Below, in pieces: positions 4,193-64,000 of a DNA stretch of 64,000 bases. The notes below the pieces were generated by a model. The model saw only the letters and a program-made list of their open reading frames with translations. It was not told the DNA's origin and did not search any database. The DNA comes from Acidobacteriota bacterium (GTDB lineage: Bacteria; Acidobacteriota; UBA890; WLXD01). Location of the stretch: NCBI GenBank assembly GCA_965205505.1, contig CBDBHB010000008.1, positions 320,001 through 384,000 of the forward strand, written 5' to 3'. Every line of letters starts with the position of its first letter. Within the stretch, counting starts at the first letter, position 1. A program made the position numbers and the translations under genes.

Positions 4193-6592
4193 CTACGCGC
4201 CCGCGGCCTCGAGCGCGGCGAGCACACGCTCGTCTCGAAAGGGCGCTCGGCGAAGACGGACGCCGGTCGCATCGTGGATGGCGTTGGCGACCGCCGCGAC
4301 CATCGGTTTGCAGACCGCCTCGCCGGCTCCGTAGGGCGGCAGATCAGACCGGTCCGGATTGGGATCACCGTTGACCAGCACCACCTCAATCTCGTCCGGC
4401 GTGTCGGTGTGCCTGAGGCTTGGATGAGACAACCAGTCCACGCTCGTGACCTTTTCGGTGTCGAACTGCACCTCCTCATGGAGCGCACGGCTAAGCGAGT
4501 GCAACATCCCACACTCGATCGTGCGACGCAGACCCTCTGGGTTGACGACCAACCCGCAGTCGTGTGCGCAGACGAGCCGCTTCACCCACACGTGTCCCGT
4601 CTCACGATTCACCTCGACCTCGGCAATCTCGGCGACGATCGTCTGGCTACGGAAGGAGTACGCGATCCCGCGTCCCGTCAGAATCGTTCCCGTTCCACGC
4701 AGTTTCGGCGAAGGCCGCGTGTCCCAGCCATAGGCAGCAGCAGCCGCACGAACTACCGCGACCGAGCGCGCCCGTCTGAACCCGCTGTCATCGTCGGTGC
4801 TGCCGCTGAGCAGATTCAGCCGGAACTCGACCGGGTCGGCGTTGGTCGCTGCCGCCAGCTCGTCGATGAACGATTCGGAGGCAAACGTGACTTGCGGTCC
4901 GTTGGGATCCCGGAGGTTGCCGGTTCGAAGCGGCGTTTCCCAAATCAAGGGAAGCCGAACTACTTGAGCCGTCGTGCGCCGGTGCGGAATGGCATACATC
5001 TCGGACGGCGTCGAAGCGCGACCCCTGTTCGGCGTTGCGAGCCGCGTCCCCATGAGTTGTGAGATCAAGACCGTCTCGACCTCGTTGTACCCGACGTGGT
5101 TGTAGTCGGCACTTTGCGCGTCGTACTCCAATGCGACCAGCTTGCCCTGAGTGTCGAGTGCTGCACGCAACCTGAACGTGAACGCCGGCCCCTTCGTATC
5201 CCAGGCCGTTTCCTCGTCCCTCATCCACTGCATGCGAACCGGCCGGCCGATCTCTTTGGCCAGGAATGCGGCCTCGAAGCCCGCATCGTCGGCGGCCGTT
5301 CGGCCGTACGCTTGGGAACCTTCCATCCAGACGACGCGCACCCGGTCCCTGGGCATGCCGAGGAACTCGGCGATGCCGTTCCGCATGCCGTAGGACTTCA
5401 TGTCGTTGGAGTAGATCGTCATCTGATCGTCGGACGGGTCGGCCAGAGCATGAGCTGGACCGAAGGCCGTGTGTCCCTGGAACGGGAAGTCGTACTCGGC
5501 CTCGATTAGCTGTGCGGCGCCGGCGAGCGCCGCTTCGGGATTTCCCACCACGTCCGGATCGTTGCTCGAGGTGGGCGTCGCGCTGCGCATATATGCATAC
5601 AATTCGTCGGACGTCGGGAACGGCGCGGCCGGCGGTTTGTCCCAGTCCGCCTGCAGCCGTCTTGCGGCGTCGATCGCCTGCTCTTCCCGCTCGCAAACCA
5701 CCGCCACGTAGTTACCCCTGCTGACCACTCGGATGAATCCCGGCAGGTCTGTTACGGACGACTCATCGATGCCGCGCAGTGCGGCGCCCACAACCGGCGG
5801 CCTGACGTTGCGCGCATGAACCATCCCGGGCAGCGTGACATCCACTGCCCAGGTCAACGACCCGTCTACCTTCGGGGGAATGTCGTAGCGCTGCGGCGAT
5901 TGGCCGACGATCCGGAGATCCTCCACCGGCTTGACGTCAGCCAGTCCTGAGATCGCGTTGACATCGCGTCCCGTCAGCGTGACATTGAACCGCCGCTCGC
6001 CGACCAAATCCGCGTAGGTGACCGTCTTGGAGGCGTCTGATCTCAACGCGATCACCGCATCACTGACGTCGAGCTGCTCGACCGGCACCTCGAACCGCTC
6101 GGAAGCCAGTTCCAGCAGGACGCGCCGGGCCTCGGCGGCGACACGCCGCATCGGCCAGCCGTCTCTCTGTATCGCATCAGATCCGCCCGAGCCGCCCTGG
6201 TCGGGCGTGACGTCGGTGCTACCCATGACGAGGCTGGTTTTGTCGTACGCGATATCCAGCTCGTCGGACATCATCTGCCGAAATGCCGTTCCGGTGCCTT
6301 GACCACAATCCGTCTTTCCTACGTAGAAAGTCGCTGTGTTGTCGCCATGAATCACGACCCAGGTATCGAGCTGCATGAAGTCGGGGTCGGGATAGGGGCC
6401 CACCGCCTGGGCCAGGGCTGATTCGCCGCCGCCGGCCACCGCCGTGAGTGAGTCGGCGCCCGTGACCGCCGTCGCGCTGAAGCTCACGACAAGAGCGCCC
6501 GAAGTCTTGAGGAAGTCCCTCCGAGAGGTCGAAGGGCTCAGGTTCTCCAATACGTCTTTGACGGCTTTCGGAACGTTCGTGAAGATTGTCAT
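4193..6592 (-). CDS. Xanthine dehydrogenase family molybdopterin-binding subunit (IorB-like), Tat-exported
   Basis: SRRDFLK Tat motif; GKTDCGQG, HDCGLVVNP and GAGE motifs. Confidence 0.9.
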   Translation of the reverse strand: MTIFTNVPKAVKDVLENLSPSTSRRDFLKTSGALVVSFSATAVTGADSLTAVAGGGESALAQAVGPYPDPDFMQLDTWVVIHGDNTATFYVGKTDCGQGTGTAFRQMMSDELDIAYDKTSLVMGSTDVTPDQGGSGGSDAIQRDGWPMRRVAAEARRVLLELASERFEVPVEQLDVSDAVIALRSDASKTVTYADLVGERRFNVTLTGRDVNAISGLADVKPVEDLRIVGQSPQRYDIPPKVDGSLTWAVDVTLPGMVHARNVRPPVVGAALRGIDESSVTDLPGFIRVVSRGNYVAVVCEREEQAIDAARRLQADWDKPPAAPFPTSDELYAYMRSATPTSSNDPDVVGNPEAALAGAAQLIEAEYDFPFQGHTAFGPAHALADPSDDQMTIYSNDMKSYGMRNGIAEFLGMPRDRVRVVWMEGSQAYGRTAADDAGFEAAFLAKEIGRPVRMQWMRDEETAWDTKGPAFTFRLRAALDTQGKLVALEYDAQSADYNHVGYNEVETVLISQLMGTRLATPNRGRASTPSEMYAIPHRRTTAQVVRLPLIWETPLRTGNLRDPNGPQVTFASESFIDELAAATNADPVEFRLNLLSGSTDDDSGFRRARSVAVVRAAAAAYGWDTRPSPKLRGTGTILTGRGIAYSFRSQTIVAEIAEVEVNRETGHVWVKRLVCAHDCGLVVNPEGLRRTIECGMLHSLSRALHEEVQFDTEKVTSVDWLSHPSLRHTDTPDEIEVVLVNGDPNPDRSDLPPYGAGEAVCKPMVAAVANAIHDATGVRLRRAPFRDERVLAALEAAGA

Positions 6593-7101
6593 CCGACCAC
6601 CTCAGGCGCGATGGCCGGTCCGCTGGTCGGTCCGCCGGACGGGGCCCCGCGCGCGACACGCTTGATCGCCGCTTGGACCCGGTAATACGTCATGCACCGA
6701 CACAGGGCTAGGGCCATCCCCTGGCGAATCTCGGCATCCGTCGGATTCGGATTTCGGTCCAGCAGGGCCTTGGCGGTCATGATCTGCCCGTTCTGGCAGA
6801 AGCCGCACTGCGGAACCTGCTCGTCGATCCACGCCTGTTGCACAGGATCCAGCGTCCCGTTCTTGGCGAGGCCTTCGAGCGTCGTTATCTCGCCGCTGAC
6901 CCGAGACGTGAGCGTGACACACGACCGAGTCGCCACGCCATCGATGATCACCGTGCACGCCCCGCACTGCCCGAGCCCACACCCGAACCGCGGCCCCCGC
7001 AAGCCGAGATCGTTTCGCAGGACATAGAGCAGCCGAGTCGACGGATCGATGTCCACCGTGTGTGTTGCACCGTTCACATGCAATGTGACGTTGCTCATCA
7101 T
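6589..7101 (-). CDS. (2Fe-2S)-binding small subunit (IorA/CoxS-like)
   Basis: GCGLGQCGACT, QCGFCQNG and LCRC motifs; start reassigned to MMSNVTL after a GGAG RBS. Confidence 0.9.
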   Translation of the reverse strand: MMSNVTLHVNGATHTVDIDPSTRLLYVLRNDLGLRGPRFGCGLGQCGACTVIIDGVATRSCVTLTSRVSGEITTLEGLAKNGTLDPVQQAWIDEQVPQCGFCQNGQIMTAKALLDRNPNPTDAEIRQGMALALCRCMTYYRVQAAIKRVARGAPSGGPTSGPAIAPEVVG

Positions 7102-7218
7102 CCATGCTCCTGGGCGTAGTATTTCATTGCTCTCTGCGAGCATCTTAGCGAAATAGCGGCGCTGCTTGGAGGCCCGCCGAAGCCGGCTCTCTTTTTTCGC
7201 GTGTGCCCGCCAGGCAGC

Positions 7219-21484: not shown

Positions 21485-21799
21485 CTAGACATCTTCGACC
21501 AGAACCAGGCGCACGACTGGCGTCACGGAACGCGCCTTGTGAGCGCTCGATGGACCAGCCGGAATGAAGATGCCTGAGCCTTCTGGATACGAAACCACCC
21601 GGTCTCGAAAGTCCACCTCGAGTTCACCGGCCAGCACCAAGCCCACATGGCCCTTCTCACACCAGTCCGGCTCTCTGAACTCCGAAGTGAACTCGACTAG
21701 ACGAATTTGTTTTGATCCTTCGTGATGCGATTTGGAGCGCGCACCCGGCAACGGCGAGTGCCACTCGATAGAGTCGAAGTCAACTTTGAATAGAGGCAT
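21485..21799 (-). CDS. Small cupin-fold protein
   Basis: DWCEKGHVGLVLAGEL...HKA cupin-like pattern. Confidence 0.7.
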   Translation of the reverse strand: MPLFKVDFDSIEWHSPLPGARSKSHHEGSKQIRLVEFTSEFREPDWCEKGHVGLVLAGELEVDFRDRVVSYPEGSGIFIPAGPSSAHKARSVTPVVRLVLVEDV

Positions 21800-21931
21800 G
21801 ACTCATTGCTCCAATGGCTGAGAAAAGAGTCGTGGTAACCGACCCGGGTGGATCAAAGAATGGTGTTGCTTTACGAGCCGTAGAGCCGGTCTTCGTGAAC
21901 GCTCGCCGACGGCGGCACGACGACACCTTCC

Positions 21932-22020
21932 GTGGACCCTTGCACCCTTCGACGATAGGCTTCACGCGCTCACTCACCTCCCTCTTTGGTAGCACCATGG
22001 AACCCCGCACCAAACTAGGC
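21932..22020 (+). repeat. Kinase-promoter/5' repeat copy D (8 codons, MEPRTKLG)
   Basis: gacgataggcttcacgcgctcac...ggtagcaccATGgaaccccgcaccaaactaggc. Confidence 0.8.
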
Positions 22021-22069
22021 CGGCTCTCCAAGAACCGCGTCGCCCAAACAACGTGAATCGGGAGATGCA

Positions 22070-23125
22070 ATGAGCCGACGCCGTTGGTGGGTCGGATCTG
22101 CGGTCGTCGCGGTGCTGGCGATGGCAGTGGCGGCGGTCGCAGCGGGAGGACCCGCCGCGCTGGCGTCGCGCCTCATCGACCTGCCGGTGCTGATCCGTGG
22201 CCGGCTGGTGGCGGCGCCCAGCGGCGAGGAGCTCGCCGTACCCGTCGCCGTCGAGCAGCACGCCGAGGAGCTCGTCGGAGGCATCGACGGCTTTATCGTC
22301 TGGTCGAGCAACCGCGACGGTAATCACGAGCTGTACCGCATGGATCTTTCGGGGCGACAGATCCGCCGGCTCACCGAGCATCCCCACGTCGATTACTACG
22401 GCCGCATATCGCCCGACGGCAGGCGCATCGTCTTCATGCGTAGCCGTCCCCGCCGCTTGTCCGTGCGGGAGGCGGGCGGCTGGGAGATCTGGATCATGGA
22501 TGCCGGGGGAGGCGGCGCGCGACGTATCGCAGAGGAGGGCTACCGACCGGGTTGGAGCGCCGATGGCGGTGCCGTGCACTACATGCGCGACCGCTCCGGG
22601 TATCGGGTCGATATGGAGACGGGGGCGACGAAGAAGCTGTTCGACTTTCCCGACGCACTGCCGGAGATCCGCTACGGCGGCGTCTATATCAGCCCGGACG
22701 CCAGCCGCATCACGGCCGCGTTTCCTGGCGGCGGGACTCGTATCTTCGAACTTCCTGGGTTTCAGGAGCACGTTCTCGACGATCACCAGTCGTGCCAGGG
22801 TCTGTGGGCTCCGGGCCTGGGCGGCGTGGTGTGGATCCAGTCCAGCGGGGCGGGGGGTAACCGGGTGATGCGGGCCGCCCCCGACGGTTCTGATCAACAA
22901 GTGCTCATCGACCTGCGCGGTAGCCATGCTCACGAATACTTCCCCAGCGTCGGTCCCGACGGACGGTGGCTTGCCTGGGGCGCCACCGCCGCCGGGCACG
23001 AGCACGACCGGGCCGACTACGAGATCTTCCTGTGGGAGATCGGCACCGAGGCAGAGACCACGCTGCGCCTGACCTACCACACCGGTAACGACATGTGGCC
23101 CGACGTGTGGGTTCGCACGGACTGA
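22070..23125 (+). CDS. TolB-like (PD40) beta-propeller protein
   Basis: SSNRDGNHELY, ISPDG and WSADG repeats; N-terminal hydrophobic segment. Confidence 0.8.
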   Translation: MSRRRWWVGSAVVAVLAMAVAAVAAGGPAALASRLIDLPVLIRGRLVAAPSGEELAVPVAVEQHAEELVGGIDGFIVWSSNRDGNHELYRMDLSGRQIRRLTEHPHVDYYGRISPDGRRIVFMRSRPRRLSVREAGGWEIWIMDAGGGGARRIAEEGYRPGWSADGGAVHYMRDRSGYRVDMETGATKKLFDFPDALPEIRYGGVYISPDASRITAAFPGGGTRIFELPGFQEHVLDDHQSCQGLWAPGLGGVVWIQSSGAGGNRVMRAAPDGSDQQVLIDLRGSHAHEYFPSVGPDGRWLAWGATAAGHEHDRADYEIFLWEIGTEAETTLRLTYHTGNDMWPDVWVRTD

Positions 23126-23225
23126 CGGTCTCCGGACGGCCGAATACTCAACGCCTCACGCACCGACCTAACGCCGATGGTGCCCGCCTACGAGTCACGC
23201 CGGGAATTCGCAGATAGGTCGTGTC

Positions 23226-23255
23226 GGCACTGTCAAGTTAAAAACTTGACAGTAC
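23226..23255. mobile_element. Back-to-back IS6-like inverted-repeat footprint
   Basis: GGCACTGTCAAGTT-AAA-AACTTGACAGTAC; a further GGCACTGTCAAGTT at 24487-24500. Confidence 0.5.
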
Positions 23256-23406
23256 ACTGGAGCGCGCTGTGGAGAGAAACGACCACCCAGCGCCAGTGCG
23301 ACAGATCGGCTGCCACGCGGCCTGCGAAATCCGCAGTGGTCTCCAAGCAGAGCACCGCTTCGTGGGTCTCATCGGTTCTGAGGTACCGAGCCATCGCGCG
23401 GGGATG

Positions 23407-24263
23407 CTATCGGTTAGCCAGATGGTCGTACACTTCGTCTGGCGGGACGCCCCTGCCCAACGCGTTCTGGATGCCTGAAAGGAGATCGCTAAGCCCCTGG
23501 TGCCCTGACAGAACCAGACGCTTGGAGTCCTCGAAGGCTCGCACAAACTCCTCCGGCGAGGCCCTGCTATCTCGCATGGTCACGTAGACCAAGTCCAGAA
23601 GGCGATCTAAGCTCGCTGAGCGCCCTGGCTCCTCGACGCTGTAGACATCGGCGACGAAGCTGGCGACCTCAAGATGTCCGACCTTAGTGATCGTCGACAA
23701 CGTCGCGACCCCTCGCAGAGCCGATTCCATCATTTCGAGCTTCACGTTCCGGAAGGCCAAGCGCCGGAGGACCTCAGCCACCTCTACCGGACCTAAGGCT
23801 CCCCGGCCATCCACACGACCGATGCGTCGAAGTTCGGTCTCGATCCGCTTCGTGTTTTAGAGTTCCGCGACACCGATGAGGCAGCATGCAGATACAGATC
23901 CTCGACAGTCGCTGCGATCCGGATGCTGGCGATGAGCAGGACCGCCAGTGAAAAAACGGTCCACGCTCCAGCAAAGATGACGAAGCGCCCAGCCGTCCAC
24001 TCCACGGAGAAGACTGTGAGTAGACCGGCCACCAGTGCGAGCGCTGCTTCTCCATAGTTACTGGTAGAGGCATAGACGACGATCGAGGTCCCGAGCACGA
24101 GAAGTACGGCGATCACCATCATCGCATTGGACGAAGTCGCGGCAACCGCAATAGCAACAGTGGCGAGTAGGAGAGCAACTACCACGATGAACGGCACGAT
24201 CCGGTTCGCGGCTTGCAGTGCTCCTCGAAGGGACCGGAGAACGCTGGATGTGGTTTCCAGCAA
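23407..24263 (-). CDS. Hypothetical membrane protein, frameshifted
   Basis: ORFs 23793..24263 (about four TM helices) and 23407..23814 overlap and appear to join. Confidence 0.5.
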
Positions 24264-24521
24264 CTGTCCTTCTTCAGTCAGAGGTCACCTCCCCTCGGCT
24301 TGGCGGCCTGACGATCTCGCCAGGGGCAGCGTCTGCAGCTTAGGCAATCTGGCCAGGCAGCGCCAAGGCACTCGGTGGAAGGAAACTGACAGCCGCGCAT
24401 GTTGCCCGGTACCGCCGCCGGCAATGCCGACTCGGCTGCGATATGCCCCTCCTGGCTCCGTAGCGCGTTTTCCGAAGGCTGCGCGCGGCACTGTCAAGTT
24501 CGACGGGGGCCGACGGATCCG

Positions 24522-24822
24522 TAGCGCCGTCAGCCGAGTCTCGCGAGCCATCCCTGCCCCTTCCGTTGGATCTCGCCGACTCTGACGATACGCTTCAGCC
24601 GCTCACTCCCACCCCTCTAGTAGCGCCATGGAAGCCGGCACCAAACTGGGCCATTACGAGATTACCGTGCAGCTCGGTGCTGGCGGCATGGGCGAGGTCT
24701 ATCTCGCCCAGGACACTCGCCTGGGCCGCAAGGTGGCCATCAAGGTGCTGCCCGCCGAGTTCGCCTCCGACCCCGAACGCCTCGCCCGCTTCGAGCAGGA
24801 GGCTCGAGCTGCCGCCGCCCAC
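24522..24822 (+). pseudogene. Kinase repeat copy E: promoter plus truncated Ser/Thr kinase N-lobe (ATG 24628)
   Basis: [30 protein letters not shown], then homology stops. Confidence 0.9.
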
Positions 24823-24865
24823 CACTTCTCGTTGACCCGCGTACGTACTCCCGCACCGCGACGGC

Positions 24866-25576
24866 TCAGGATCGCTTGGACGCGGGCTTGGCGGCCTCGG
24901 CGCGATATGTGCCGCTAGTAGCGCCGTTGTCCGTACCCTCCTCTTCTCCCGTTTCGATGCACATGAATGTGCCCGAGAGCCTCGCTGAGCGGACGACGTA
25001 GCTGGAGCCTCCTTCCTTGACCGACCCTCCTCCACCAGCGTTGAACTCGCAGTTCTCAGCCCCCGAGGAGTACGTTCCCTGCAGGTAGATCGAGAAATGA
25101 CTCTGCGTCGCGGTAGCTCTGACGCTGGCCTCTATGGTTGTCAGGCTCCTGGCCCCCGACACGATGCAAGGTACCGGAGCTCCAGTCTTATTGAACGGTA
25201 TCCGGACCGTCGCACGACAGACCAAACGGGTATCGCCCCCGGAGAGGTTGACGTCGATGTTCCATGTGAAGACGGTGGTCTCGTCGGGCAAGGCAGGCAG
25301 CGCGACGTCCACGGCCAATGTGTCCGTGCCCACGGGCACGCTGACGATCTTGAGCACCGGTGGTCGCCCAGGTACGTTGATCGACAGCCCATAATCGCCC
25401 GGCAACAAGAAGAACTTGCCGCCCGCTGGTTGGGTAAAGACGAAGAACCCGAAAAAGGGGTCGGTGTTGTAGGCCGTAATCGTTCCTTCTGTCACAGGCT
25501 CCCCGGACGCCGTCCTCAGGTCGACCTCTACGGCGCGAAAGCCCTCCTCCGGTTTGAACCACTCCTCCGAGCACAC
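24866..25576 (-). pseudogene. Probable C-terminal fragment of a secreted protein with a carboxypeptidase-regulatory-like domain
   Basis: GEPVTEGTIT..LLPGDYGLSI pattern; no signal peptide or clear start. Confidence 0.4.
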
Positions 25577-25677
25577 CCATACTTATGTAGGGGCCGTTGG
25601 GAAATCCGGCGCATGGGTCGGGTTTACCTCGTACAGAGTCCCGAACGCGAAGGGGTGCTCGGCGTAGGAGGTCGTTC

Positions 25678-26337
25678 TCACCGCTCACGAAGAGGCCCGG
25701 GGCAACGGAAGCTGCTGCATCCCCCAACTCCTCGAAGTCTCCCGTGAAGAACGACGAGGATGGCCCGGCCCCCGAGTTCGGGCTCGTAATCGCTGCCCAC
25801 GTCAAGGAAGCGTCTGCCTGCCTGATCCTCATAGATCGATACGGCAATCACCTCCACGGGCAAGCCATTCTCGATCAGGAACTCCATCGCCGATTCCGTG
25901 CGTCCATCGAAGTCCCGCGCCACCAGGACAAGGCGGGGAGTCTTGCTCAGCGTCAATGGAGTCGCGGACTCAGTGAATTCCTGCCAGTCCGTGAAGAACG
26001 CTGCCGGACCACCCTGATACAGGCCCGACAACTCGTCGAGACTCGTGGTCCGTGCCCAGCCGGCGTACTCCAGACATTGGGCGAGTTGCCGTCGATCGAG
26101 ATCCCGCTTGACCTCGATCACGACTACGTCTGCCTTCTGGTCGAGCGCAACGACGTCCGGGCGACCGCCGTTCGTAAGACTGGCCTGTCGAGCCACCGGA
26201 AACAGCGTGTCGCCAGTGAACTCATCGAGGTTCGCCCAGAGAAGATCCTCGATCAGGCTCTCGTAGAGTTCACGCCCGCCGCGAAGCTGCCGGAACGGCA
26301 CGAGCTCCTTGTTATCGTCGATCTCAAACAGCGGCAT
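25678..26337 (-). CDS. NucS/EndoMS-like PD-(D/E)XK nuclease-domain protein, possibly C-terminally truncated
   Basis: GRPDVVALD..VVIEVKR..AQCLEYAGW motif. Confidence 0.7.
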   Translation of the reverse strand: MPLFEIDDNKELVPFRQLRGGRELYESLIEDLLWANLDEFTGDTLFPVARQASLTNGGRPDVVALDQKADVVVIEVKRDLDRRQLAQCLEYAGWARTTSLDELSGLYQGGPAAFFTDWQEFTESATPLTLSKTPRLVLVARDFDGRTESAMEFLIENGLPVEVIAVSIYEDQAGRRFLDVGSDYEPELGGRAILVVLHGRLRGVGGCSSFRCPGPLRER

Positions 26338-27011
26338 GGCGAACCTGTTGTCGGAGTGGCATCGGGCGCACGATGACCCGTACCGAGGGTTTCCAGAGGC
26401 CATCTTAGTTGACCCGGGCGGGGTGCACGGCCTTGTCTACGCGGCGAACGTCTGGAGGGACGAGCTGAGCGGCCGTCTGGGCCCCGTGTGCGGCGGCAGC
26501 ATACATCGGATCGCCACTAACCCAAGCAAGGCAAAGAGCCCGCACGCGCAGACGTGCAAGACCTCTCTTGGTGTGTGCTACCGAGAGGCTCGTGTGTCCC
26601 AAGCCGTCGTCATGCCTGTGTCCCGGCGTCCATGCTTCTTTCTTGTGGGTGAGCCGAATTGCGGCAAGAGCCGCTCGTGGCCTCTCGGCTCCTGGAGGAC
26701 TGCAGAGGCTCTGGCAGCGGTGTGTCATCGGCAAACTCTTCCCCGAATACAGCGATCCCAGGAGACGTTCGGAGTCGTCACCCTAGATGGATGTCGAAAA
26801 CTGCGCTTCTCCTCGCCCTCGTCGTGCGCATTGTCGAGTAGCGTCGCCTCGATCAGCTGCGGCGCCTCGGCCGTATGCCGCCGGTGGCCCATCCTATCCA
26901 AGACCGGCAGGAACATCATGATCGCCGTGCCGAGCAAGGCGGCGGCGGGGTTAAGGTGTTGAGGGAAGAAGGGTCAGGTATAGGAACGACGAAATAGGGT
27001 TTGGACTCCAG

Positions 27012-27774
27012 ATGATCGACCCGGACGACATTCCCAGGACGGCCATCGAACAGGTCGTCATGATGGAAGGCATCCTAATAGCGGCTGCCACAGGCGGTTC
27101 ACCGACAACCACATCTACGCTCACCTGCGCCGGCAATTCATGGCCGATCCCGTGATCCGCGACCTGCTTCCCTAGTTCGTTCGCACCTATCGCAACCTCA
27201 GCGCCTTCTGGCCCTACATTAAGCATAAGGCAGGCACCTACGCGGAGCGGCGGCAGATCATCAGCGAGGCTTTCACGCCCCTGATGGATCACCTTGAGGG
27301 CCGGAACAGCACGCCCGGTGACCAGGTTGCATCCGACGCCCTGAAAAGGTTCGACGCGGACCGAGTTCATGCCGTGTGGCAGAAGGCGCTGGCCCGACGC
27401 ACTACCGATCCTGAAGGCGCAATAACTATCGCTCGGACGCTGCTTGAGACGGTGACGAAGCGCATCCCTCGACGAGATGGGTGAGACCTACTCAGACAAA
27501 GACGATCTGCCGAAGCTCTATTCGAATGCCGCGAGGGCGCTCAATCTCGCCCGTCAGCACACGGGGGAGCCGATCAAGGCGATCCTCGGCAGCGCCATGA
27601 CTCTGGTGAACGGCATCGGTTACATTGCGTAACCGTCTGTCCGACTCCCACGGGCGGGGCGTCAAACTTCCGGTGAAGCCGTCACCACGCCATGCCAGCC
27701 TCGCTGTCAATATGGCGGGGACGATTGCGTCCTTTCTCGTCGAGACCTACCTTGAAGGGCATTCGCGATCATAG
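27012..27774 (+). pseudogene. Abortive infection (Abi_C-domain) family protein with an internal stop and frameshifts
   Basis: Reconstructed DPEGAITIARTLLETV..DDLPKLY..LRNRLSDSHG..PSPRHASLAVN; in-frame TAG near 27173. Confidence 0.75.
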
Positions 27775-28139
27775 CTCGACCGTGCGCATGCGCTTGGTCA
27801 AGTCGATGCTATTGGACACGTCGTCCCGCAGCAGGAACCTGTGGCTGCTGGTGTGGGCGATGTGGATGGAGCTGTCACGAGCGACGGCAGCGCCTATGCC
27901 GCTACGTGGTGCCACGATGCCGCTGCTAATCGAGAAGTTCGCGGAGGCGTTGACCGCCCGCTAGGGGGGCCGAGAACCCCGCTTCCGTCCGACCGTCGCT
28001 CAGACGCCGTCAAGCAAGCTAGCCACCTCGGGAACTGTCGCGGATAGTGATTACGAATCAGTTCCGACACGGCAGCGCCGCCGCAGATCCCCTGAACCCC
28101 CGCTGAAGCGCGCACGCCACCACTCCTTGCCAACGCAGC

Positions 28140-28193
28140 GTCTCGACATCCGTGCACGGAATGCACGGGCAACGACGTGGCCACTGGTCTGGC
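28140..28193. repeat. Cassette left-end repeat X, copy 1
   Basis: Aligns with 30298-30353; shares exact ggcaacgacgtggccac and cgtgcacggaa. Confidence 0.75.
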
Positions 28194-28457
28194 GTTGGAG
28201 GTGGCCGGTGACTCCACTCGGTTCGTGAACCTGGCGCAATACCGCGCATCGAGCCCTCGACAGGTACTTCCTCGCGCCGCGGGCCCGTCCGCGTCTACGG
28301 TGACAGGGTTCCTTCTCCGATCCCCCCGGCCCACGGGCTAGAAGCCTGGTTCATCTGCAGAGGCTCCGCCGGACCGGCAAGATGCACTATGTGACGACGG
28401 GCTAAGCACCACAGCGATGTAGCGTAGCGTCGGTTCCCGCACTATAGCTCTGCAACC

Positions 28458-38369: not shown

Positions 38370-39496
38370 GCTCGTACCTCACACCCACATCGCCGCGGCA
38401 GACACCCGGTGCGCTGGCGTCCGGGGGAACATCACCAAGAGTGCTGACTCCGATAGAGCGAGACGTCGTGCTGACCCTCGCTTACGCCGACATGTTCGAC
38501 TATCCGCTTACCTTGCCGGAGATACATCGCTACCTCGTCGGCACCGCCGCAGAGTTGGCCGAGGTAACCACCGCGGTCAACGGGCTGGAGGGGCGGGGCA
38601 TCGAGCGGCGCGACGGCTACGTGTTCGTAGCCGGACGTCGGCACACCGTCGACATGCGACTCCGCCGCCGGCGTTCGAGCGCACCTCGATGGGACACGGC
38701 GCGACGATACGCGTGGGCCTTGAGTCGGTGTCCGTTCGTGCGGATGGTGGCGGTGTGTGGCTCGTTGGCGGTAGACAACGTCGACGACCACGGCGATATC
38801 GATATCTTCTGCATCACCGTCCGTGGGCGGCTCTGGTGGGGGCAGGTGGCCGCCATGCTGCTACGCCGGTTGCCGGCGTTCGCGCGCCAGCATGTGTGTC
38901 CGAACTTCTTTCTATCAGCTGGCAGCCTGCGCCTCGACGACCGCAACCTGTACACAGCTCACGAGATCATCCAGGCTGCGCCACTGGCCGGCGAAGCAGT
39001 GTACCGCGAGTTCGTCGACGCCAACGACTGGCTCGACGAGCTACTACCCAACGCGCGCGGCGCAGATGTAGACACCATTGGCGGGGCCGCCGATGAGCCC
39101 GGCGGCGGACCACGAGGTGACCACCAACGCCGAGGCGCCGCGTTCATCGAACGACTGTTCGGTGGCCGGTTCGGGGACGCGCTCGACCGCATAGGCTACG
39201 AGACATTGCTCCGCTACTACGCGCTGCGGTTGCGTGCACGCGGTGTAACCCTGCAACAGCTGCGCCGCTATTACCGACGCGATCGCCAGCTGGTTGTCGG
39301 TGGGGGCTACGAGGCGATCGTTCGATCGCGGTTTGCCGCGCACCTGCGCGAGCTTCTCGGCGACCCTGGCGCGGCCGCCATGGTGGCGCGTCTGCTCCCC
39401 GTTGGCGAAGCTAGCGCCACGAACGGGCCGGGCCGCCGGCCATCGCAGCCGCTGTACGAGCAGCAGTTCGAGACTCGCTACGGAGCAGACCGGTGA
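38366..39496 (+). CDS. Nucleotidyltransferase-fold protein
   Basis: VCGSLA..DIDIF (hGS..DxD) motif; N-terminal YADMFDYPLT. Confidence 0.65.
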   Translation: MSSYLTPTSPRQTPGALASGGTSPRVLTPIERDVVLTLAYADMFDYPLTLPEIHRYLVGTAAELAEVTTAVNGLEGRGIERRDGYVFVAGRRHTVDMRLRRRRSSAPRWDTARRYAWALSRCPFVRMVAVCGSLAVDNVDDHGDIDIFCITVRGRLWWGQVAAMLLRRLPAFARQHVCPNFFLSAGSLRLDDRNLYTAHEIIQAAPLAGEAVYREFVDANDWLDELLPNARGADVDTIGGAADEPGGGPRGDHQRRGAAFIERLFGGRFGDALDRIGYETLLRYYALRLRARGVTLQQLRRYYRRDRQLVVGGGYEAIVRSRFAAHLRELLGDPGAAAMVARLLPVGEASATNGPGRRPSQPLYEQQFETRYGADR

Positions 39497-41067
39497 GCGA
39501 CCTGCTGGTGGGCCAGTCCTATTTCCTACGCTTCGACCCGAAACTCTACCGGGCCATGCGGCCGCAGCCGCCACTGGGATCGTTGTGGGCCGCGTCGTGC
39601 GCCCGCCAGCAAGGCCACTCGGTGCAGGTGTTCGACGCCATGCTGGCAGAGTCTGAGGACGACTGGGCCGCGGCGCTAGAGCGGGCCCGCCCGCGTTTCG
39701 CCGTGTTGTTCGAAGACAACTTCAACTACCTGTCGAAGATGTGTCTGCTACGCATGCGCGAGGCAGCATTCCGCATGATCGCAATGGCAGGCAAGCGCCA
39801 GTGCGAGGTAATCGTGTGCGGCTCCGACGCTACCGATCACTCACGTGAGTACCTCGAGCAGGGGGCCGACTTCGTGCTCAGCGGCGAGGGTGAGGCCACC
39901 TTGATCGAGCTTTTGGCCTCACGCACCGGGCGCAGCGACCAACCGGTGGAGGCGATCGCAGGTTTGCGCTTCCTGGCAGCCGACGGCAGCTTTCGCGACG
40001 CCGGCAGCCGGCCTCTGCTGATCGATCTGGATGCGTTGCCCGCACCGGCGCGGGATCTGATCGACATGGAGCGCTATGCGTCGATCTGGCGGCAACGCCA
40101 CGGCATGTTCTCGCTGAACATGGCCACCACCCGCGGCTGTCCCTTCCACTGCAACTGGTGCGCCAAGCCCATCTGGGGGCAGGCCTACCACACCCGTAGC
40201 CCTGAGCACGTGGTCGCCGAGATGGCGCAGATAGTCGAGCAATACGGCGTGGAGCACATCGACTTCGCCGACGACATCATGGGGCTGCAGCCGGGATGGC
40301 TGGGGCGATTCGCCGACCGTCTTGCCGACGCCGGGCTCCGAGTGCCCTACAAGTGCCCGAGCCGCGCCGACCTGCTGCTGCGCGAAGGCGAGATCGGCGC
40401 GCTGCGACGCTCCGGTTGCCGCACGGTATGGATGGGGGCCGAGTCGGGCTCGCAGAAGGTTCTCGATGCGATGGAGAAGGGCACCACGGTCGAACAAGTC
40501 GAGGAGGCCAGTGGGCAGCTGCGCCAGGCGGGAATCGGCGTCGGGTTCTTTCTGCAGTTCGGCTACCCGGGCGAGACACAAGATGACATCGATCGGACGC
40601 AACAGCTGGTGCGACGCTGCGCGCCCGACGAGATCGGCATCTCGGTGTCGTACCCGCTGCCCGGCACCAAGTTCCATGATCGCGTGCAAGAGCAGTTCGG
40701 CACGCAGCGCAACTGGGTAGATTCCGACGACATGGCGATGCTCTACGCCGGCCCGTATAGCGCTCCGTTTTATCGTCGGCTGTACCACGTTGTGCAGCTC
40801 GAATTCCGTCGCGACCGAGCGCTTGCCGAGGCCATCGGCCGCGATCACCGACCGACCTCGACGCCCCGCCGACGATTGCGCTGTCTCGCCGCAGCCACGG
40901 CGCACACACTGCGTTTGCCGTTCGAACGTAGGCAACTGGAACGACTGCGGCGGCAATCGGCAAGCGGGCCGCAGCTGATCGCCCAGCCGGTCGATCGGGA
41001 AGAGGCCGCCACCCCTACCCCGCAGGCTGCCGCGCACGCCACTCCGCAGCCAATCGCGCAGGGCTGA
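39493..41067 (+). CDS. B12-binding radical SAM protein 1
   Basis: PPLG N-terminal cobalamin domain; TRGCPFHCNWC; GAESGSQ. Confidence 0.92.
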   Translation: MSDLLVGQSYFLRFDPKLYRAMRPQPPLGSLWAASCARQQGHSVQVFDAMLAESEDDWAAALERARPRFAVLFEDNFNYLSKMCLLRMREAAFRMIAMAGKRQCEVIVCGSDATDHSREYLEQGADFVLSGEGEATLIELLASRTGRSDQPVEAIAGLRFLAADGSFRDAGSRPLLIDLDALPAPARDLIDMERYASIWRQRHGMFSLNMATTRGCPFHCNWCAKPIWGQAYHTRSPEHVVAEMAQIVEQYGVEHIDFADDIMGLQPGWLGRFADRLADAGLRVPYKCPSRADLLLREGEIGALRRSGCRTVWMGAESGSQKVLDAMEKGTTVEQVEEASGQLRQAGIGVGFFLQFGYPGETQDDIDRTQQLVRRCAPDEIGISVSYPLPGTKFHDRVQEQFGTQRNWVDSDDMAMLYAGPYSAPFYRRLYHVVQLEFRRDRALAEAIGRDHRPTSTPRRRLRCLAAATAHTLRLPFERRQLERLRRQSASGPQLIAQPVDREEAATPTPQAAAHATPQPIAQG

Positions 41068-42488: not shown

Positions 42489-43818
42489 ATGGACCTACTG
42501 CTGACACACGCGTATTTCCTCCAGGAGGACAAACACGAGCAGCTCGCGGCACGAGTTCCGCTGCCACCTTGAGCGTACACGGCCCCGCATCGTCGGCATC
42601 TACGTCAACCTGATGACGCTCGCTAGCGCCCTCCAGACGATCTCCGACTGTCGCGAGTTCGGCAGCATCGTGGTGGTGGGTGGACCGGAGCCGGCCGAGT
42701 ACGCCGATGAGTACCTCGCAGCCGGCGCCGACGTCGTGGTCGACGGCGAGGGCGAGATCACCCTACGGGAGCTGGTGCCGCACCTACTGGAGCACGGCGT
42801 TGCAGGCCTCGATGCGATCGACGGGATCATCTACCGTTCCGAAACATCCAATGGTGCGAACCAACGCGCCCCCGTCCGCACGGCCGCGAGAGCGCAGATC
42901 AGCGATCTAGATACGCTTCCGGACCCCGACCGAGAGGCCATCGACATTGGTCGCTACGTCGACGTATGGCGCACCCATCATGGGGCCGGCTCGGTGTCGT
43001 TGATCACTGCTCGAGGGTGCCCGTACAAATGCAATTGGTGCAGCCACAGCGTGTTCGGCTTCTCTCACCGGCGTCGATCCCCGGTGCGTGTCGCCGACGA
43101 GCTCGAGCATATCGTGAGCCGCTACCGCCCCGACCAGGTCTGGTATGCCGACGACGTGTTCACGATCAATCATCGCTGGCTTCACGAGTACGGCGACGAG
43201 CTGGAGCGCCGTGGTATGCGTGTGCCATTCGAGACCATCTCGCGCGAGGATCGCCTCGATACCGAGACCATCGCGCGTCTCGCCTCGATGGGATGCCGCC
43301 GTCTGTGGGTTGGGGCGGAAAGCGGGTCGCAGCGCGTCCTCGATGCCATGCAGCGCCAGACGAACGCGCCGCGTGTCGAGCAGATCGTCCACGAGCTACA
43401 ACAACACGGCATCGAGGTCGGTCTGTTCATCATGCTCGGCTACGAAGGCGAGCGGGTGAGCGACATCGAAGAGACCGTGGCGTTTCTCAAGCGGGCACGG
43501 CCAGACCGCTTCGTTACCACGGTTGCCTATCCCATCAGGGGGACCAGATACTATGAGCGCGTCTCGGATCGGCTCGTCGTGCCGCAGTCGTGGGCGACCA
43601 GCACCGATCGCGACATCTCGGTGCGTGGCAGGCACTCCGACAGGTTCTATCGCTGCGCCACACGCTGGATGGTCAACGAGGTCGAGCGCGCGCGCCTACG
43701 CAGCAGCGATCGAACCGGCTATGGGCGGCTCGCCCGCGCCACCGTCAATGCCCACGTAGGGCGCCTCGGCATGCACCTCCTGCGGCATCAGCAGCGCACT
43801 GCGGCGCCGCAGCCATGA
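42489..43818 (+). CDS. B12-binding radical SAM protein 3, N-terminal lesion at ~42550-42600
   Basis: MDLLLTHAYFLQED start; VVGGPEP; ARGCPYKCNWC; GAESGSQ. Confidence 0.85.
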
Positions 43819-58798: not shown

Positions 58799-59120
58799 GT
58801 CCTCCGTGGTGGAAGTGAGCATTGGCGCGCCGCGGCGGCCAGCCTTGCTACGTCGTTCCTCGTCAACGATGGGGTGACCATCGCTTCCTCCTTTCTCCTT
58901 GCCTCCGCCTCGCAAGCCCCCTGGCGCCAGACCCGCCACACTTCCTGCTAGTGCGGTCGGTCCGCTTAACGTACCCTGTTGCGACGTTGTTCACGCACCT
59001 CCCACGGGGGGCCGCACGCCAAGCGAAGCGGCGTGCTCCGAACCTCGGGGTGTACCCTCCGGCGCGCCCCCGATGCGGGCAGCGAGGGATCGTGCGTGTT
59101 CCCTACAAGGATCCGAGGCG

Positions 59121-60449
<1,329 letters not shown>

Positions 60450-60483
60450 CAAGCCGTGGTGGAAGTGTGGTGGGTCTGGCTCG

Positions 60484-61659
60484 CTACTGCCCGGCGGAGA
60501 CCGTCGAGCCGTTGATCGCCGACAGCAGCAGTTGATATCGCACAATCACGCTGCGGCCGGCGCGCTGCTCTACCCGGAATACGTGCTCGCCGCGATGCGC
60601 ATCCCACCCCTGGAACGACAGAATGCCGTTGACCACCAGCTCACCATCAGGGCTGTATACGTCCACCGGAAACTCGGTAGCATCGGCATCCACGACATAC
60701 GGAAAGACGAATAGCCGGCCCTGGTCATCGGTCTCGATGCCCGCCAGCGCCGGGAAGTAATCGGGCCAGATAGCATCCGCGTCCTCGGCCAGGTTGGCCG
60801 CCATCGTGCGCCCGACCCGCTCGGCCCGTCCGGTGGTCTTGGCCACCAGGTGCTCGGGAATCGGCTCGCGCGGCCAGGGCGCCTCCAGCACCCAGACAAC
60901 ATCGGCGTTGAGATCGAACGCGGCTACCTCGTAGATGGCGCTGGCGGTGGCATACACACGATCGCCTCCTACCACGAACGCCTCTTTCGGCCACAGGTGG
61001 ATGTCACCGGCGCGATCCTGCTCGGGCGCCTTGAATACGGTGAAGCGACCGACAACGCTGCCATCCTCGGCAACTAGACTCAGCACTCCGGTGGACAGCT
61101 CGCGGGCTACTGTCCGCTCATCACGAATCGGGTGTGGAAAGACGATCCCCGGCGCTGTCTCGACACCACGTAGATACGTACCATCGGACGCGAAAGTGGA
61201 CAGGCGGCCGGGCTCGGAAGGGTCAGGCGACAACTGCGCAATGACCAAGCCATCATGCCGAGCACCGATCGTCACCAGACTGCCCGGCGGTGTGGACTCC
61301 AGCACCACCTTGGCGCTTGTCCAGTCGCCCACGGCGATGCCTTGCGGTGTGAACGCCCCCAACCACACATCAGCGAGCGTATCGAACTTGAAGATTCTAC
61401 CCCCGGAGCCGACCGCGATGGCCAGCGCGTTGGGGAACTGCGGGTCTGCCGGAGCCACGTCGATCACCAGCTCCTCCACGGTGCCGACGCGAACGCGACC
61501 AGGACCCGCGGCCACCACCGCGACGCTGCGACGGGGGACGTCGTCGGCTACATAGAGAACAACCTCGTCCGCGCTCGTATCACCCGCTTCCGTGCCGCCA
61601 CAAGATATCAATAGTGCCCCAGAGGCAACTATCAACAGTATCAACCACTTATGTATCAA
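60484..61659 (-). CDS. 6-bladed beta-propeller-like lipoprotein
   Basis: LLISC lipobox; DDQGRLFV and VDVYSPDG blade-like motifs. Confidence 0.7.
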   Translation of the reverse strand: MIHKWLILLIVASGALLISCGGTEAGDTSADEVVLYVADDVPRRSVAVVAAGPGRVRVGTVEELVIDVAPADPQFPNALAIAVGSGGRIFKFDTLADVWLGAFTPQGIAVGDWTSAKVVLESTPPGSLVTIGARHDGLVIAQLSPDPSEPGRLSTFASDGTYLRGVETAPGIVFPHPIRDERTVARELSTGVLSLVAEDGSVVGRFTVFKAPEQDRAGDIHLWPKEAFVVGGDRVYATASAIYEVAAFDLNADVVWVLEAPWPREPIPEHLVAKTTGRAERVGRTMAANLAEDADAIWPDYFPALAGIETDDQGRLFVFPYVVDADATEFPVDVYSPDGELVVNGILSFQGWDAHRGEHVFRVEQRAGRSVIVRYQLLLSAINGSTVSAGQ

Positions 61660-61691
61660 GTATCCCCCTTACACCCAAGGGAATAGTTTAG

Positions 61692-61725
61692 CTAGCTCGT
61701 GGTGCTTACTAGCTCGTGGTGCTTA
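61692..61725. repeat. Perfect 17-bp tandem repeat
   Basis: ctagctcgtggtgctta x2. Confidence 0.9.
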
Positions 61726-61736
61726 AAGGAAGCCCG

Positions 61737-61781
61737 AAGAAAAGAAAGTGGGGGTACCCGATTGACAACCGGGCACCCCCC
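61737..61781 (-). terminator. Rho-independent terminator after the peptide gene
   Basis: Stem ggggtacccg/cgggcacccc followed on the minus strand by a U-rich tail (ctttcttttctt). Confidence 0.75.
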
Positions 61782-61820
61782 GTATGTTCAGCTCCGATTG
61801 CTCGGAGCACAGGTACCGCT

Positions 61821-61991
61821 CTAGCGGCACGATCTCCAGCAGCCCGAAACGGATCCGCCCATTGCGATGCAGGCTCTCATACACGAGCGCGGACCTGCCT
61901 CGGCCGGGGCGACGCTCAGCTGAAGTATGCCGAGAGCCATCACGGTGCCGAAGAGTAGCGTCGCTGCAATACGCAGCGTTCGCCTAGTCAT
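61821..61991 (-). CDS. Secreted Cys-rich peptide precursor (56 aa)
   Basis: Purine-rich RBS; Sec signal ending AEA; predicted mature GPRSCMRACIAMGGSVSGCWRSCR; own terminator. Confidence 0.75.
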   Translation of the reverse strand: MTRRTLRIAATLLFGTVMALGILQLSVAPAEAGPRSCMRACIAMGGSVSGCWRSCR

Positions 61992-62396
61992 CCTCTTTAC
62001 TCCGGGGAGAGGGACCCTCGATGGAGGGGCCCGATGAGGTTTGGAAGACTTCACAGGTGTTGGGTCATTCCCCCTTCGGCACAGCTATTCGGGGAGGTGA
62101 ACGGTCGCACGGTCTGATCACCACATCAGCTGCCCGCGGTTGTGCCTACCGCGGGAGCCTCGCAGCAACCAAGGTCTTCGCCGAGCGACCCGGACAAAGC
62201 GTTGTTCGTGGTCAGGTACTAACGGTCGATAAGATCGAGTAGAACATCGACATCGGCTTCTCTGAGCGCCCCAGACCAGACGCGTTCAACAACAGCGTCG
62301 GCTCCCACCAGAACCGTTATCGGCACTAGCGGGACTGGGCCTCCCCCGATTTCCCGGACACCTTTGGAAGTCCGATAATGGGCTCGGAGGTGAAGC

Positions 62397-62690
62397 ATGG
62401 GGTCACGACGGCGGTACAGTCGCGAGTTCAAGATTGAGGCAGTGAGGATGGTGACGCAGCTGGGCCATCCGGTGTCTGAGGTGGCCCGGGATCTGGGTGT
62501 TGGCCGCGGCATGTTGACCAAGTGGCGCAAACAGCTCCAGGAGCAGGGGGTCACGGCGTTTCCGGGCGCGGGGAAGATGCCCGACCAGGACCTGGACGGG
62601 CAACAGCTACGGCGGCACCTGCGGCGAGTACGGCAGGAGCGCGACATTCTAAAAAAAGCGTTGGCGATCTTCTCGGAACGCCCGCGATGA
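62397..62690 (+). CDS. IS3 transposase OrfA
   Basis: YSREFKIEAV HTH; ERDILKKA with an A7G -1 frameshift motif at 62651-62658. Confidence 0.92.
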   Translation: MGSRRRYSREFKIEAVRMVTQLGHPVSEVARDLGVGRGMLTKWRKQLQEQGVTAFPGAGKMPDQDLDGQQLRRHLRRVRQERDILKKALAIFSERPR

Positions 62691-63682
62691 AGTACCCGAT
62701 CATCAAGCAACTGTCCGGCAAGTTCCCGGTGCGGCGGTTGTGCAAGATGCTCGAGGTGTCTCACGGCGGTTACTACGAGTGGCGAGGAAGGGGGCCGAGC
62801 CCGAGAGCGCGAGAAGATCGCCGTCTACGTGTGCAGATCAGAGCTGCATTCCGAGAGAGCCGCGACCGTTACGGAAGTCCGCGCATCCACAAGCAACTTC
62901 GGCAACGAGGGATCCGCTGCTCTCGCAAGCGGGTAGCTCGGCTGATGCGCCAGGAAGGACTTCGAGCTCGCCAACCCCGTCGGTTCCGGGTGACAACACG
63001 GCCCACACCTGGCCGGTCAGCGGCGCCCAACGTGCTGGCACGGCGCTTCACGGTGGATGCCGTGGACAGCGTCTGGGTGGGCGACCTGACATACCTGTGG
63101 ACGCAGGAAGGATGGCTATACCTGGCCGTGGTGATGGATCTGTGCTCGCGACGGATCATCGGCTGGGCGGTGAGCGAGACGATGACGGACGATTTGACGC
63201 TGGCGGTCCTGGATCAGGCCTTGGAGCAACGCCGTCCCGGTTCCGGAGTGCTCCATCACAGCGACCGCGGCAGCCAGTACAGCAGCGACGATTACCTAGA
63301 CAAGCTGCGTGACCGTGGCTTCACCATCAGCATGAGCAGGAAAGGAGACTGCTGGGATAACGCGCCGATGGAGAGTTTCTTCTCTACCCTGAAGTTCCAA
63401 CTCGGTGGCTGCTTCAGTTCCCGGGCGGCGGCCCGAGCCGAGTTGTTCCACTACATCGAAGTGTTCTACAACCGGGCTCGCATGCACACCTCGATCGGAG
63501 ACCAGAGTCCGGCTCAGTTCGAGGCGGCAATGCGGCGGCCAGGCCAGAGCGGCCAATCAGCTGTGGAAGCTGACGCGCCCGTGGAAATCGACTCCCGATT
63601 TCCACCGTCGCTTGGACAACGCTCCGCGTTGCCAACAGCTCCCACAGCCGCTAATACGACTACGACAATGGATCTTAACTAA
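62687..63682 (+). CDS. IS3 transposase OrfB (DDE)
   Basis: WVGDLTY, HSDRGSQY and DNAPMESFF motifs. Confidence 0.95.
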   Translation: MKYPIIKQLSGKFPVRRLCKMLEVSHGGYYEWRGRGPSPRAREDRRLRVQIRAAFRESRDRYGSPRIHKQLRQRGIRCSRKRVARLMRQEGLRARQPRRFRVTTRPTPGRSAAPNVLARRFTVDAVDSVWVGDLTYLWTQEGWLYLAVVMDLCSRRIIGWAVSETMTDDLTLAVLDQALEQRRPGSGVLHHSDRGSQYSSDDYLDKLRDRGFTISMSRKGDCWDNAPMESFFSTLKFQLGGCFSSRAAARAELFHYIEVFYNRARMHTSIGDQSPAQFEAAMRRPGQSGQSAVEADAPVEIDSRFPPSLGQRSALPTAPTAANTTTTMDLN

Positions 63683-64000
63683 GTGTCCGGGAAAGCGGGG
63701 CAAGGTCAGACCTTCAGCGCAGCGCTAGCGGCGAGCTGGTCGTCTGGGAGCCACAGCGGCCATGCCACCCCCATCTCGGTGACGTAGCTTCGCGTCCGCT
63801 CCGCGTCGTCGAGGGAAACGCCAACGAACGGGACGCCGCTCGCGGCATACGCCTCGGCAAGCCGCTCCCAGGCAGGGAGTGTTTCCTTGCAGAAGGGGCA
63901 AGTAGTGGTCAGAAACGCGATCACGCCGCCACGCGGCACGATGTTGCTCAGGGCTGACGGTCGACCGGCAAGATCGGTGAGCAAGACCGCAGGCAACGTG

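Follow-up and report, generated by a model that had tools for sequence, protein, structure and literature searches.

The last part of a 64,000-nucleotide (nt) stretch of DNA from an Acidobacteriota bacterium (assembly GCA_965205505.1, contig CBDBHB010000008.1, positions 320,001 to 384,000; hereafter the window) carries on its minus strand, within positions 60484..64000, three coding elements: a 391-amino acid (aa) open reading frame (ORF) for a propeller lipoprotein, a 56-aa ORF for a cysteine-rich peptide precursor, and a fragment of a thioredoxin-fold (redoxin) ORF. The reading that best accounts for them, which we advance tentatively and at somewhat below an even chance, is that the precursor and the redoxin form a module, in which a Sec-exported helical hairpin stapled by disulfides is matured by a paired periplasmic oxidoreductase. 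A preliminary description of the region, made from the sequence alone, had proposed a secreted hairpin peptide served by the redoxin and the propeller; its observations are partly confirmed and its interpretation is partly supported by the present analysis.

The precursor gene (61821..61991, minus strand) specifies a 32-aa Sec-type signal ending in AEA, followed by a 24-aa core of the form CX3C-X9-CX3C-R. The predicted mature peptide of the window is thus 24 aa long with a net charge of +4, and a Shine-Dalgarno (SD) sequence, GGAG, lies 8 nt 5' of the ATG. In these respects the preliminary description was exact: the ORF, its Sec signal, its cationic core and its own ribosome-binding site are all found as claimed. 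Relatives were collected by using the propeller protein as the query in a scan of species-representative genomes, keyed on two motifs of the propeller C-terminus so that relatives without these motifs escape it, and this yielded 32 loci. Three of them, L001 (91% identity to the propeller of the window), L002 and L003 (66% each), are orthologous loci from Acidobacteriota metagenome-assembled genomes (MAGs) with a convergent ino1 gene common to all three, and the other 29 are more distant relatives. The gene order is known from four closely related genomes, namely the window and these three, and frameshifts in the MAG loci may reflect assembly error. Seven copies of the peptide are recovered by tblastn in the window and L001-L003; six are intact, and peptide copy A of L001 has a one-base frameshift within a G run. 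Retention of a signal together with a Cys peptide in homologous loci, which had been proposed as a check, is seen in the six intact copies from the four Acidobacteriota genomes, every one of which has a K/R-rich start, a hydrophobic core, an AxA motif, CX3C-X9-CX3C and then R or H before the stop codon.

Several lines of evidence bear on whether so short an ORF is a gene at all. The cysteines C37, C41, C51 and C55 (precursor numbering) are invariant in all six intact copies, and the ratio of nonsynonymous to synonymous substitution (dN/dS, Nei-Gojobori) lies at 0.10-0.50 in 15 of 15 pairs of copies. In the alignment, the variable columns at codon positions 1, 2 and 3 number 24, 22 and 44 of 60, respectively. 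Across the window and the 32 loci (491,799 bases), 8,212 frames between stop codons reach 30 aa or more, and just seven of them contain the motif CX3C-X9-CX3C, six being copies of this peptide; judged from these sequences, the motif is no chance product. Taken together, the conserved copies, the dN/dS values, the codon-position pattern and the rarity of the motif indicate that the 56-aa ORF is a genuine conserved gene with the features of an export signal. A longer frame of 77 aa with a GTG start (62054) was considered and rejected, because insertions and deletions in L002 and L003 break it upstream of the ATG, which leaves the ATG as the start. Export by the Tat route was likewise set aside, as the twin arginine is present only in the window and L001B copies, with KR or KA elsewhere, and Sec is more likely. 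No Pfam or NCBIfam family matches the peptide, and its absence from these curated libraries bears out the earlier remark that such an ORF is easily missed by annotation.

The gene neighborhoods of the orthologous loci link the peptide to the redoxin. In L003 the order is a CopD-like gene (on the opposite strand), redoxin A, peptide A, redoxin B, peptide B, propeller and ino1. L002 has the same order, with redoxin B frameshifted, and L001 reads redoxin A, peptide A, peptide B and propeller, redoxin B having been deleted precisely to the start of the peptide leader. Thus, L002 and L003, two of the three orthologous loci, have the redoxin and peptide genes as a tandemly repeated unit. The A peptides have Ala after the cleavage site and the sequence CIAMGG, and the B peptides have Gly at this position and mostly CIASG; since these features distinguish A from B across genomes, the duplication is older than the split of the genomes, with both units having been kept. 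The duplication as a unit supports a dedicated TlpA/ResA-like partner for the peptide.

In the window itself this module is partly decayed. An insertion sequence (IS) of 1,373 bp, which the preliminary description overlooked, lies on the plus strand at 62336..63708 and separates the peptide gene from the 5'-ward redoxin fragment. Its orfA (62397..62690, plus strand) codes for a helix-turn-helix protein (HTH_Tnp_1), and its orfB, which extends in the -1 frame to 63682 on the same strand, for an rve domain that matches NF033516 at 4.5e-107. A slippery run of seven A residues lies at 62651-62657, the inverted repeats, which start with TG and finish with CA, agree in 22 of 30 positions, and a 3-bp target duplication, GAC, is present at 62333-62335 and 63709-63711. 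By this combination of HTH orfA, rve orfB, A-rich slippery site, TG..CA repeats and 3-bp duplication, the element is assignable to the IS3 family. It is apparently intact, and occurs in one copy in the window and in none of the 32 loci.

The 5'-ward fragment of the redoxin gene (63709..64000, minus strand) encodes the thioredoxin fold with a CPFC motif and runs off the end of the window, which falls inside the gene at 64000 and places the redoxin N-terminus beyond view. Alignment to the orthologues delimits a 3' fragment (62122..62335, minus strand), whose C-terminal tail with a CC pair is still recognizable. The part at 62222..62335 resumes 63709..63999 exactly at the duplicated codon, and both align to intact orthologues free of gaps; the 3' fragment has an in-frame TAG at 62219-62221 in place of a sense codon, with the conserved tail still encoded by the next 30 codons. 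Because the IS3 element splits the gene and a stop codon interrupts it in frame, the redoxin of the window is a pseudogene, while the peptide gene is intact. The earlier view of three co-oriented genes thus holds insofar as all three lie on the minus strand, but a plus-strand IS intervenes and splits one of them; similarly, the CPFC thioredoxin-fold gene reported upstream of the peptide is present as a fragment of a gene broken by the IS and the TAG. Lesions of the MAG loci, which could be decay or long-read assembly error, are located at 6505-7173 and 7306-7475 of L001 (redoxin CPFG and peptide A frameshift), 6819-7590 of L002 (redoxin B frameshift) and 7946-9086 of L003 (propeller frameshift).

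The redoxin matches the Pfam families PF00578 (AhpC-TSA; 42 bits, cut-off 26) and PF08534 (Redoxin; 31.8 bits, cut-off 26.6), and scores 32.8-40 bits with the NCBIfam ResA/TlpA/DsbE equivalogs, far under their cut-offs of 170-230 (ResA: 40 against 170). Its nearest solved relatives are ResA proteins (E 2e-6), and a Val precedes the Pro that aligns to the cis-Pro of ResA. In the intact versions, of about 222-234 aa, an N-terminal hydrophobic anchor precedes the thioredoxin domain, and the protein ends in a conserved tail that bears a vicinal CC pair (..DPGCC.APAVGTT.G); this tail is encoded at 62122-62218 (minus strand) of the window, 7080-7173 of L001, 6010-6105 of L002, and 5925-6020 and 7365-7462 of L003. 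The active site reads CPFC in the window, in both L003 copies and in L002B, CPSC in L002A and CPFG in L001. In Campylobacter DsbA2, the pairing of CPFC with a Val-cisPro is described as near to the classical oxidizing DsbA (PMC4460558). By analogy, the direction of the redox reaction could be either, since the CPFC/V-cisPro combination resembles oxidizing DsbA enzymes and TlpA reduces CX3C copper sites.

A reductive direction would suit the main rival explanation, in which the peptide is a thiolate metal binder: the reduced twin-CX3C hairpin would bind Cu(I) or another soft metal, possibly as a dimeric Cys-lined bundle, with the TlpA-like protein keeping its cysteines reduced in the oxidizing periplasm. 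There are parallels in that TlpA is the reductant of those cysteines of cytochrome oxidase subunit II that bind Cu, acting ahead of metallation, Sco proteins coordinate Cu through CxxxC, the small protein CutF is exported by Sec and has a CxxxC as its putative Cu site (all PMC7558416), and the four-helix bundles of Csp proteins, lined with Cys, serve as Cu(I) stores (PMC9484137). The neighborhood offers a CopD-family gene divergently upstream of the module in L003 (4235-5137, minus strand; PF05425, 5e-17) and similar 300-aa ORFs at the same place in L001 (5291-6193, minus strand) and L002 (4223-5125, minus strand), the Pfam match having been checked in L003 only; moreover, the nearest named relatives of the redoxin, ResA and TlpA, are reductive. 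However, the peptide has no conserved pattern of His or Met ligands and a core of only 24 aa, the resemblance of CPFC with V-cisPro is to the oxidizing DsbA types, CopA, CopC, Sco and PCuAC were not seen in the loci, a scan of 55 ORFs of the window turned up no copper gene, and the adjacency to CopD is limited to close relatives. We regard a metal-binding role as unlikely, though it is the alternative to be taken most seriously.

The predicted structure and the wider family of the peptide bear on the reading as a cross-linked hairpin. AlphaFold2, run with a six-row alignment, gives a signal helix followed by helices at 35-43 and 48-55, with a predicted local distance difference test (pLDDT) value of about 85 in the core; the model of the peptide alone, another check proposed at the outset, hence predicts a helix-loop-helix. 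An Atlas search with the peptide is uninformative (best score 0.77). A profile of the six peptides, searched against 1.84 billion representative proteins at E<=0.001, returned four matches, namely the L001 copy, the L002 copy, P0014 and P0015. In P0015 (66 aa) the signal peptide is homologous and the core takes the form CX3CX3C-X9-CX3CX3C, and P0014 (228 aa) contains three CX3C-X9-CX3C modules. A word-index search with alignment added P0016, with four Cys, and P0017, P0018 and P0019, which together with P0015 constitute a six-Cys subfamily. None of the family members is recognized by Pfam or NCBIfam, the only match of P0014, to Vicilin_N (E 0.097), being sub-threshold. Relative to the four-Cys form, the six-Cys form has one more Cys in each segment, i-4 in the first and i+4 in the second, and this symmetric outward gain is what a ladder of antiparallel cross-links predicts.

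The favored interpretation can thus be set out as a two-gene module, coding for a membrane-anchored, periplasm-facing TlpA/ResA-like oxidoreductase (CP[FS]C) and the 56-aa precursor. The precursor would be exported by Sec and cut by signal peptidase after AEA to release a peptide of about 24 aa, made up of two short helices and a GG-containing loop. Its four cysteines, at i/i+4 on each helix and face to face, would form the nested disulfides C37-C55 and C41-C51, which the paired redoxin would form or proofread. The product would be a stapled alpha-hairpin mini-protein acting in the cell envelope, expressed from a gene with its own SD sequence, terminator and conserved leader. A precedent is sublancin, a peptide with two disulfides whose operon includes thiol-disulfide oxidoreductases (PMC6391423). 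A more far-reaching proposal, possible but in our estimate rather doubtful, is that a class of Sec-exported Cys-ladder mini-proteins resembling the alpha-hairpinins arose independently in bacteria, in four-Cys, six-Cys and multi-module forms that parallel those of the plants, each peptide gene matched one-to-one with a dedicated TlpA-fold oxidase or isomerase and placed under the control of the conserved leader; it would amount to a novel type of envelope peptide system for the Acidobacteriota.

Several observations weigh against maturation of a stapled hairpin by a paired enzyme. Only four genomes, all close relatives, show the pairing, and the proximal redoxin has been lost in the window through the IS and in L001 through the deletion, with the remaining redoxin of L001 reading CPFG; hence, barring assembly errors or a further copy beyond 64000, the peptide may not strictly need the redoxin. 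TlpA/ResA-type proteins are classically reductants (PMC7558416), and a DsbB/VKOR or DsbD/CcdA partner was not observed in the loci, nor any Dsb, VKOR or CcdA gene among the 55 scanned ORFs of the window. A Foldseek search of the peptide model against the PDB gives nothing significant, the best matches being thionins at E>3, and the disulfide pairing is inferred. The proposed role of the redoxin as a dedicated disulfide catalyst accordingly draws support from the duplicated units of L002 and L003 and loses some from the inactivation of the window copy by the IS and the stop codon. The loss of the proximal redoxin in two genomes would also suit a simpler account, in which the two genes are neighbors only: the exported peptide would be folded by the general Dsb machinery, the redoxin would serve another substrate, and their pairing would be an inherited duplicated segment. 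Yet the duplicated unit always holds both genes, the A and B copies of both are intact across dS values of about 0.5-1.4, and the peptide leader begins before the redoxin ORF has reached its 3' end, an arrangement that speaks for a coupled organization; we consider mere neighborhood quite improbable.

The propeller lipoprotein (60484..61659, minus strand; TTG start, lipobox LISC) was characterized through its homologues, AlphaFold2, Foldseek and Atlas as an NHL/DUF5128-like six-bladed beta-propeller of 391 aa. The lipobox Cys is invariant in all ten homologues compared. The window protein itself matches no Pfam (E<=0.1) or NCBIfam family, including PF17170 and PF01436, and homologues at 24-31% identity do carry these two domains; P0004, a propeller at 38% identity, is a further relative. 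It scores 0.96 to DUF5128/NHL clusters in Atlas; its AlphaFold2 model has a pLDDT of 75.9 and a predicted template-modeling (TM) score of 0.78, and the top Foldseek matches of this model are NHL domains (TRIM2, Brat) at E ~1e-10 and a target-normalized TM score of about 0.6. The predicted fold is therefore of the six-bladed NHL type, and the propeller lipoprotein announced downstream of the peptide is confirmed to this extent. The propeller family is large and expanded: sixteen of the 32 loci (all within L004-L030) come from one Acidobacteriota chromosome, OZ244217.1, which thus has at least 16 loci with genes for DUF5128/NHL-like propeller lipoproteins, often in tandem arrays of two to four and in varied contexts.

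These data bear on the full model of the preliminary description, namely that a hairpinin-like antimicrobial or signaling peptide is released, that the redoxin is dedicated to forming its disulfides, and that the propeller acts as a receptor or immunity protein for it. The motif and the predicted fold fit the definition of the alpha-hairpinins, C1X3C2XnC3X3C4 in a helix-loop-helix (PMC11591084), the immunity gene of sublancin is also set off from the structural gene by a terminator (PMC6391423), and in NHLRC2, including its bacterial forms, TlpA-like and NHL-propeller domains are fused (PMC6107167). At the locus, the model can appeal to the +4 charge of the window peptide, to the adjacency of propeller and peptide in four of four orthologous loci, and to the rate of evolution of the propeller, which is about that of the peptide (66% identity, against 91% for the adjacent ino1). 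This charge is, however, not conserved among the copies, falling to about +1 to +2 in the others and becoming acidic in the P0014 modules, and the locus encodes neither an outer-membrane export system nor an ABC transporter. Acidobacteriota are generally regarded as diderm, which counts against a released peptide. We find no evidence of an antimicrobial role.

The propeller fares no better as a dedicated partner. ORFs with a signal peptide and at least four Cys are found by a filter in L001-L003, as had been anticipated for small Cys-rich ORFs beside homologous propeller and redoxin genes, but none stands beside the propeller gene in the other 29 loci; L025 has the lone other match, an ORF that is unrelated and lies about 4 kb from the propeller gene. 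None of the 74 neighboring ORFs scanned in 19 of these 29 loci has a thioredoxin fold. The four genomes that share the arrangement are closely related, and their synteny is not independent evidence. Three predictions of a peptide-propeller complex scored 0.02, 0.38 and 0.03, and give no verdict. As a terminator separates the two genes, the distant loci are devoid of the peptide and the adjacency is confined to four related genomes, the link is weak, drawing otherwise on the general association of thioredoxin and NHL folds in NHLRC2; the propeller gene is a separate transcription unit, whether or not its product is a partner of the peptide, and the assignment of the propeller as receptor or immunity protein is unsupported. 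Overall, we judge the full model improbable. In Bacteroidetes, DUF5128-type propeller genes may occur beside small "NVEALA" peptides; a literature search found nothing on this arrangement or on DUF5128.

The peptide gene is flanked by conserved noncoding features. An intrinsic terminator 3' of it (61750..61780, minus strand), with a 14-bp stem and a T tract, corresponds to the one reported earlier and is kept in L001-L003, with a compensatory change from T-A to C-G in L002. Between this terminator and the propeller gene is a perfect 17-nt tandem duplication (61692..61725) that is absent from L001-L003. Upstream of the peptide gene, a structured leader (61992..62194, minus strand) comprises about 200 nt that are conserved before each peptide ATG more strongly than the coding sequence. 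Its first hairpin is formed by the last codons of the redoxin ORF, which encode the end of the redoxin tail; there follow, in order, an almost invariant block, a second hairpin with compensatory changes, and a predicted CCUC/GAGG helix with one double change in L003B, which would cover the SD sequence of the peptide. Compensatory change is seen in 8 of 56 predicted pairs. In all sequence searched, nhmmer places the leader at the seven peptide sites only; Rfam gives no match over 60000-64000, the leader included (E<=1), and a scan of 61500-62400 for sigma-70 promoters found none. The leader may be a promoter with operator, a processing site or a translational switch; its invariant block, GGAAT..N16-17..GTC-like, could be a promoter of the extracytoplasmic function (ECF) type.

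Elsewhere in the window, a 471-aa ORF at 59130-60545 (minus strand) lies antisense to the inositol-3-phosphate synthase gene (58899-60449, plus strand) and is most likely a high-GC artefact. Two genes for B12-binding radical SAM proteins (39493-41067 and 42613-43818, plus strand) are found among glycosyltransferase genes about 18 kb away, with no link seen to the peptide module, and 21485-28334 is a run of about 11 ORFs with no Pfam match at E<=1e-5.

Annotation largely overlooks small exported peptides, and under either a disulfide or a copper reading the present one offers a testable entry point to the envelope biology of the poorly studied Acidobacteriota. If it is a stapled hairpin, it would be a bacterial counterpart of a scaffold so far known from plant defense peptides, and a compact natural disulfide scaffold that comes with its own folding catalyst, and it would provide a TlpA-fold enzyme, the redox direction of which is open to measurement, with a defined substrate. 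If it binds copper, it would instead be a minimal periplasmic thiolate buffer.

Among known systems, the plant alpha-hairpinins share with the peptide the CX3C-Xn-CX3C pattern, the n of 9 seen here falling within the 4-20 range used for prediction (PMC11591084, Table 1), a six-Cys variant of the form CX3CX3C-Xn-CX3CX3C, a multi-module protein (here P0014) and a helix-loop-helix (predicted here). They differ in that the active plant members have n of 11-13 (PMC11591084). Further, the peptide is of bacterial origin and each copy has its own Sec signal, whereas the plant peptides are excised from vicilin-type or multimodular precursors, and there is no sequence homology between the two. The likeness asserted by the preliminary description is thus one of Cys pattern, in six of six copies, and of predicted fold, and does not extend to homology, no Pfam or NCBIfam family being matched. 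No bacterial hairpinin is described in the literature found, which concerns plant peptides and allergens or synthetic macrocycles and was judged mostly from titles and the beginnings of abstracts.

Among the glycocins, sublancin has a helix-loop-helix fold held by two disulfides. Glycocins such as sublancin, with BdbA and BdbB, are likewise ribosomal bacterial peptides with genes for thiol-disulfide oxidoreductases in the cluster (PMC6391423). In contrast to them, the peptide has a Sec signal instead of a double-glycine leader and SunT, no glycosyltransferase, another Cys spacing and a host from the Acidobacteriota rather than the Firmicutes; a glycosyltransferase, a double-glycine leader and a peptidase-ABC exporter, the hallmarks of glycocins, are absent from the loci, where the neighbors are CopD, an NhaC-like gene, ino1, the propeller and the IS. 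With TlpA, ResA and CcmG the redoxin shares the fold family, the CXXC motif, the aligned cis-Pro and, in the orthologues, an N-terminal anchor, and it departs from them in T-C-P-F-C versus W-C-x-x-C, the extra CC tail, the sub-cut-off NCBIfam scores and a candidate substrate that is a co-encoded mini-protein. NHLRC2 resembles the locus in associating a TlpA-like domain with a six-bladed NHL propeller (PMC6107167), a likeness at the level of fold class, whereas here these are products of separate genes with the peptide gene and a terminator between them. The copper proteins CutF and Csp have in common with the peptide export and CX3C on helices, and a CopD neighbor is present in the orthologous loci here; they differ in the lack of homology, in the much shorter length of the peptide and in that metal binding by it is hypothetical. 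By analogy, then, the module appears to work like the alpha-hairpinins and the oxidoreductase-equipped glycocins, and yet it is a member of neither family.

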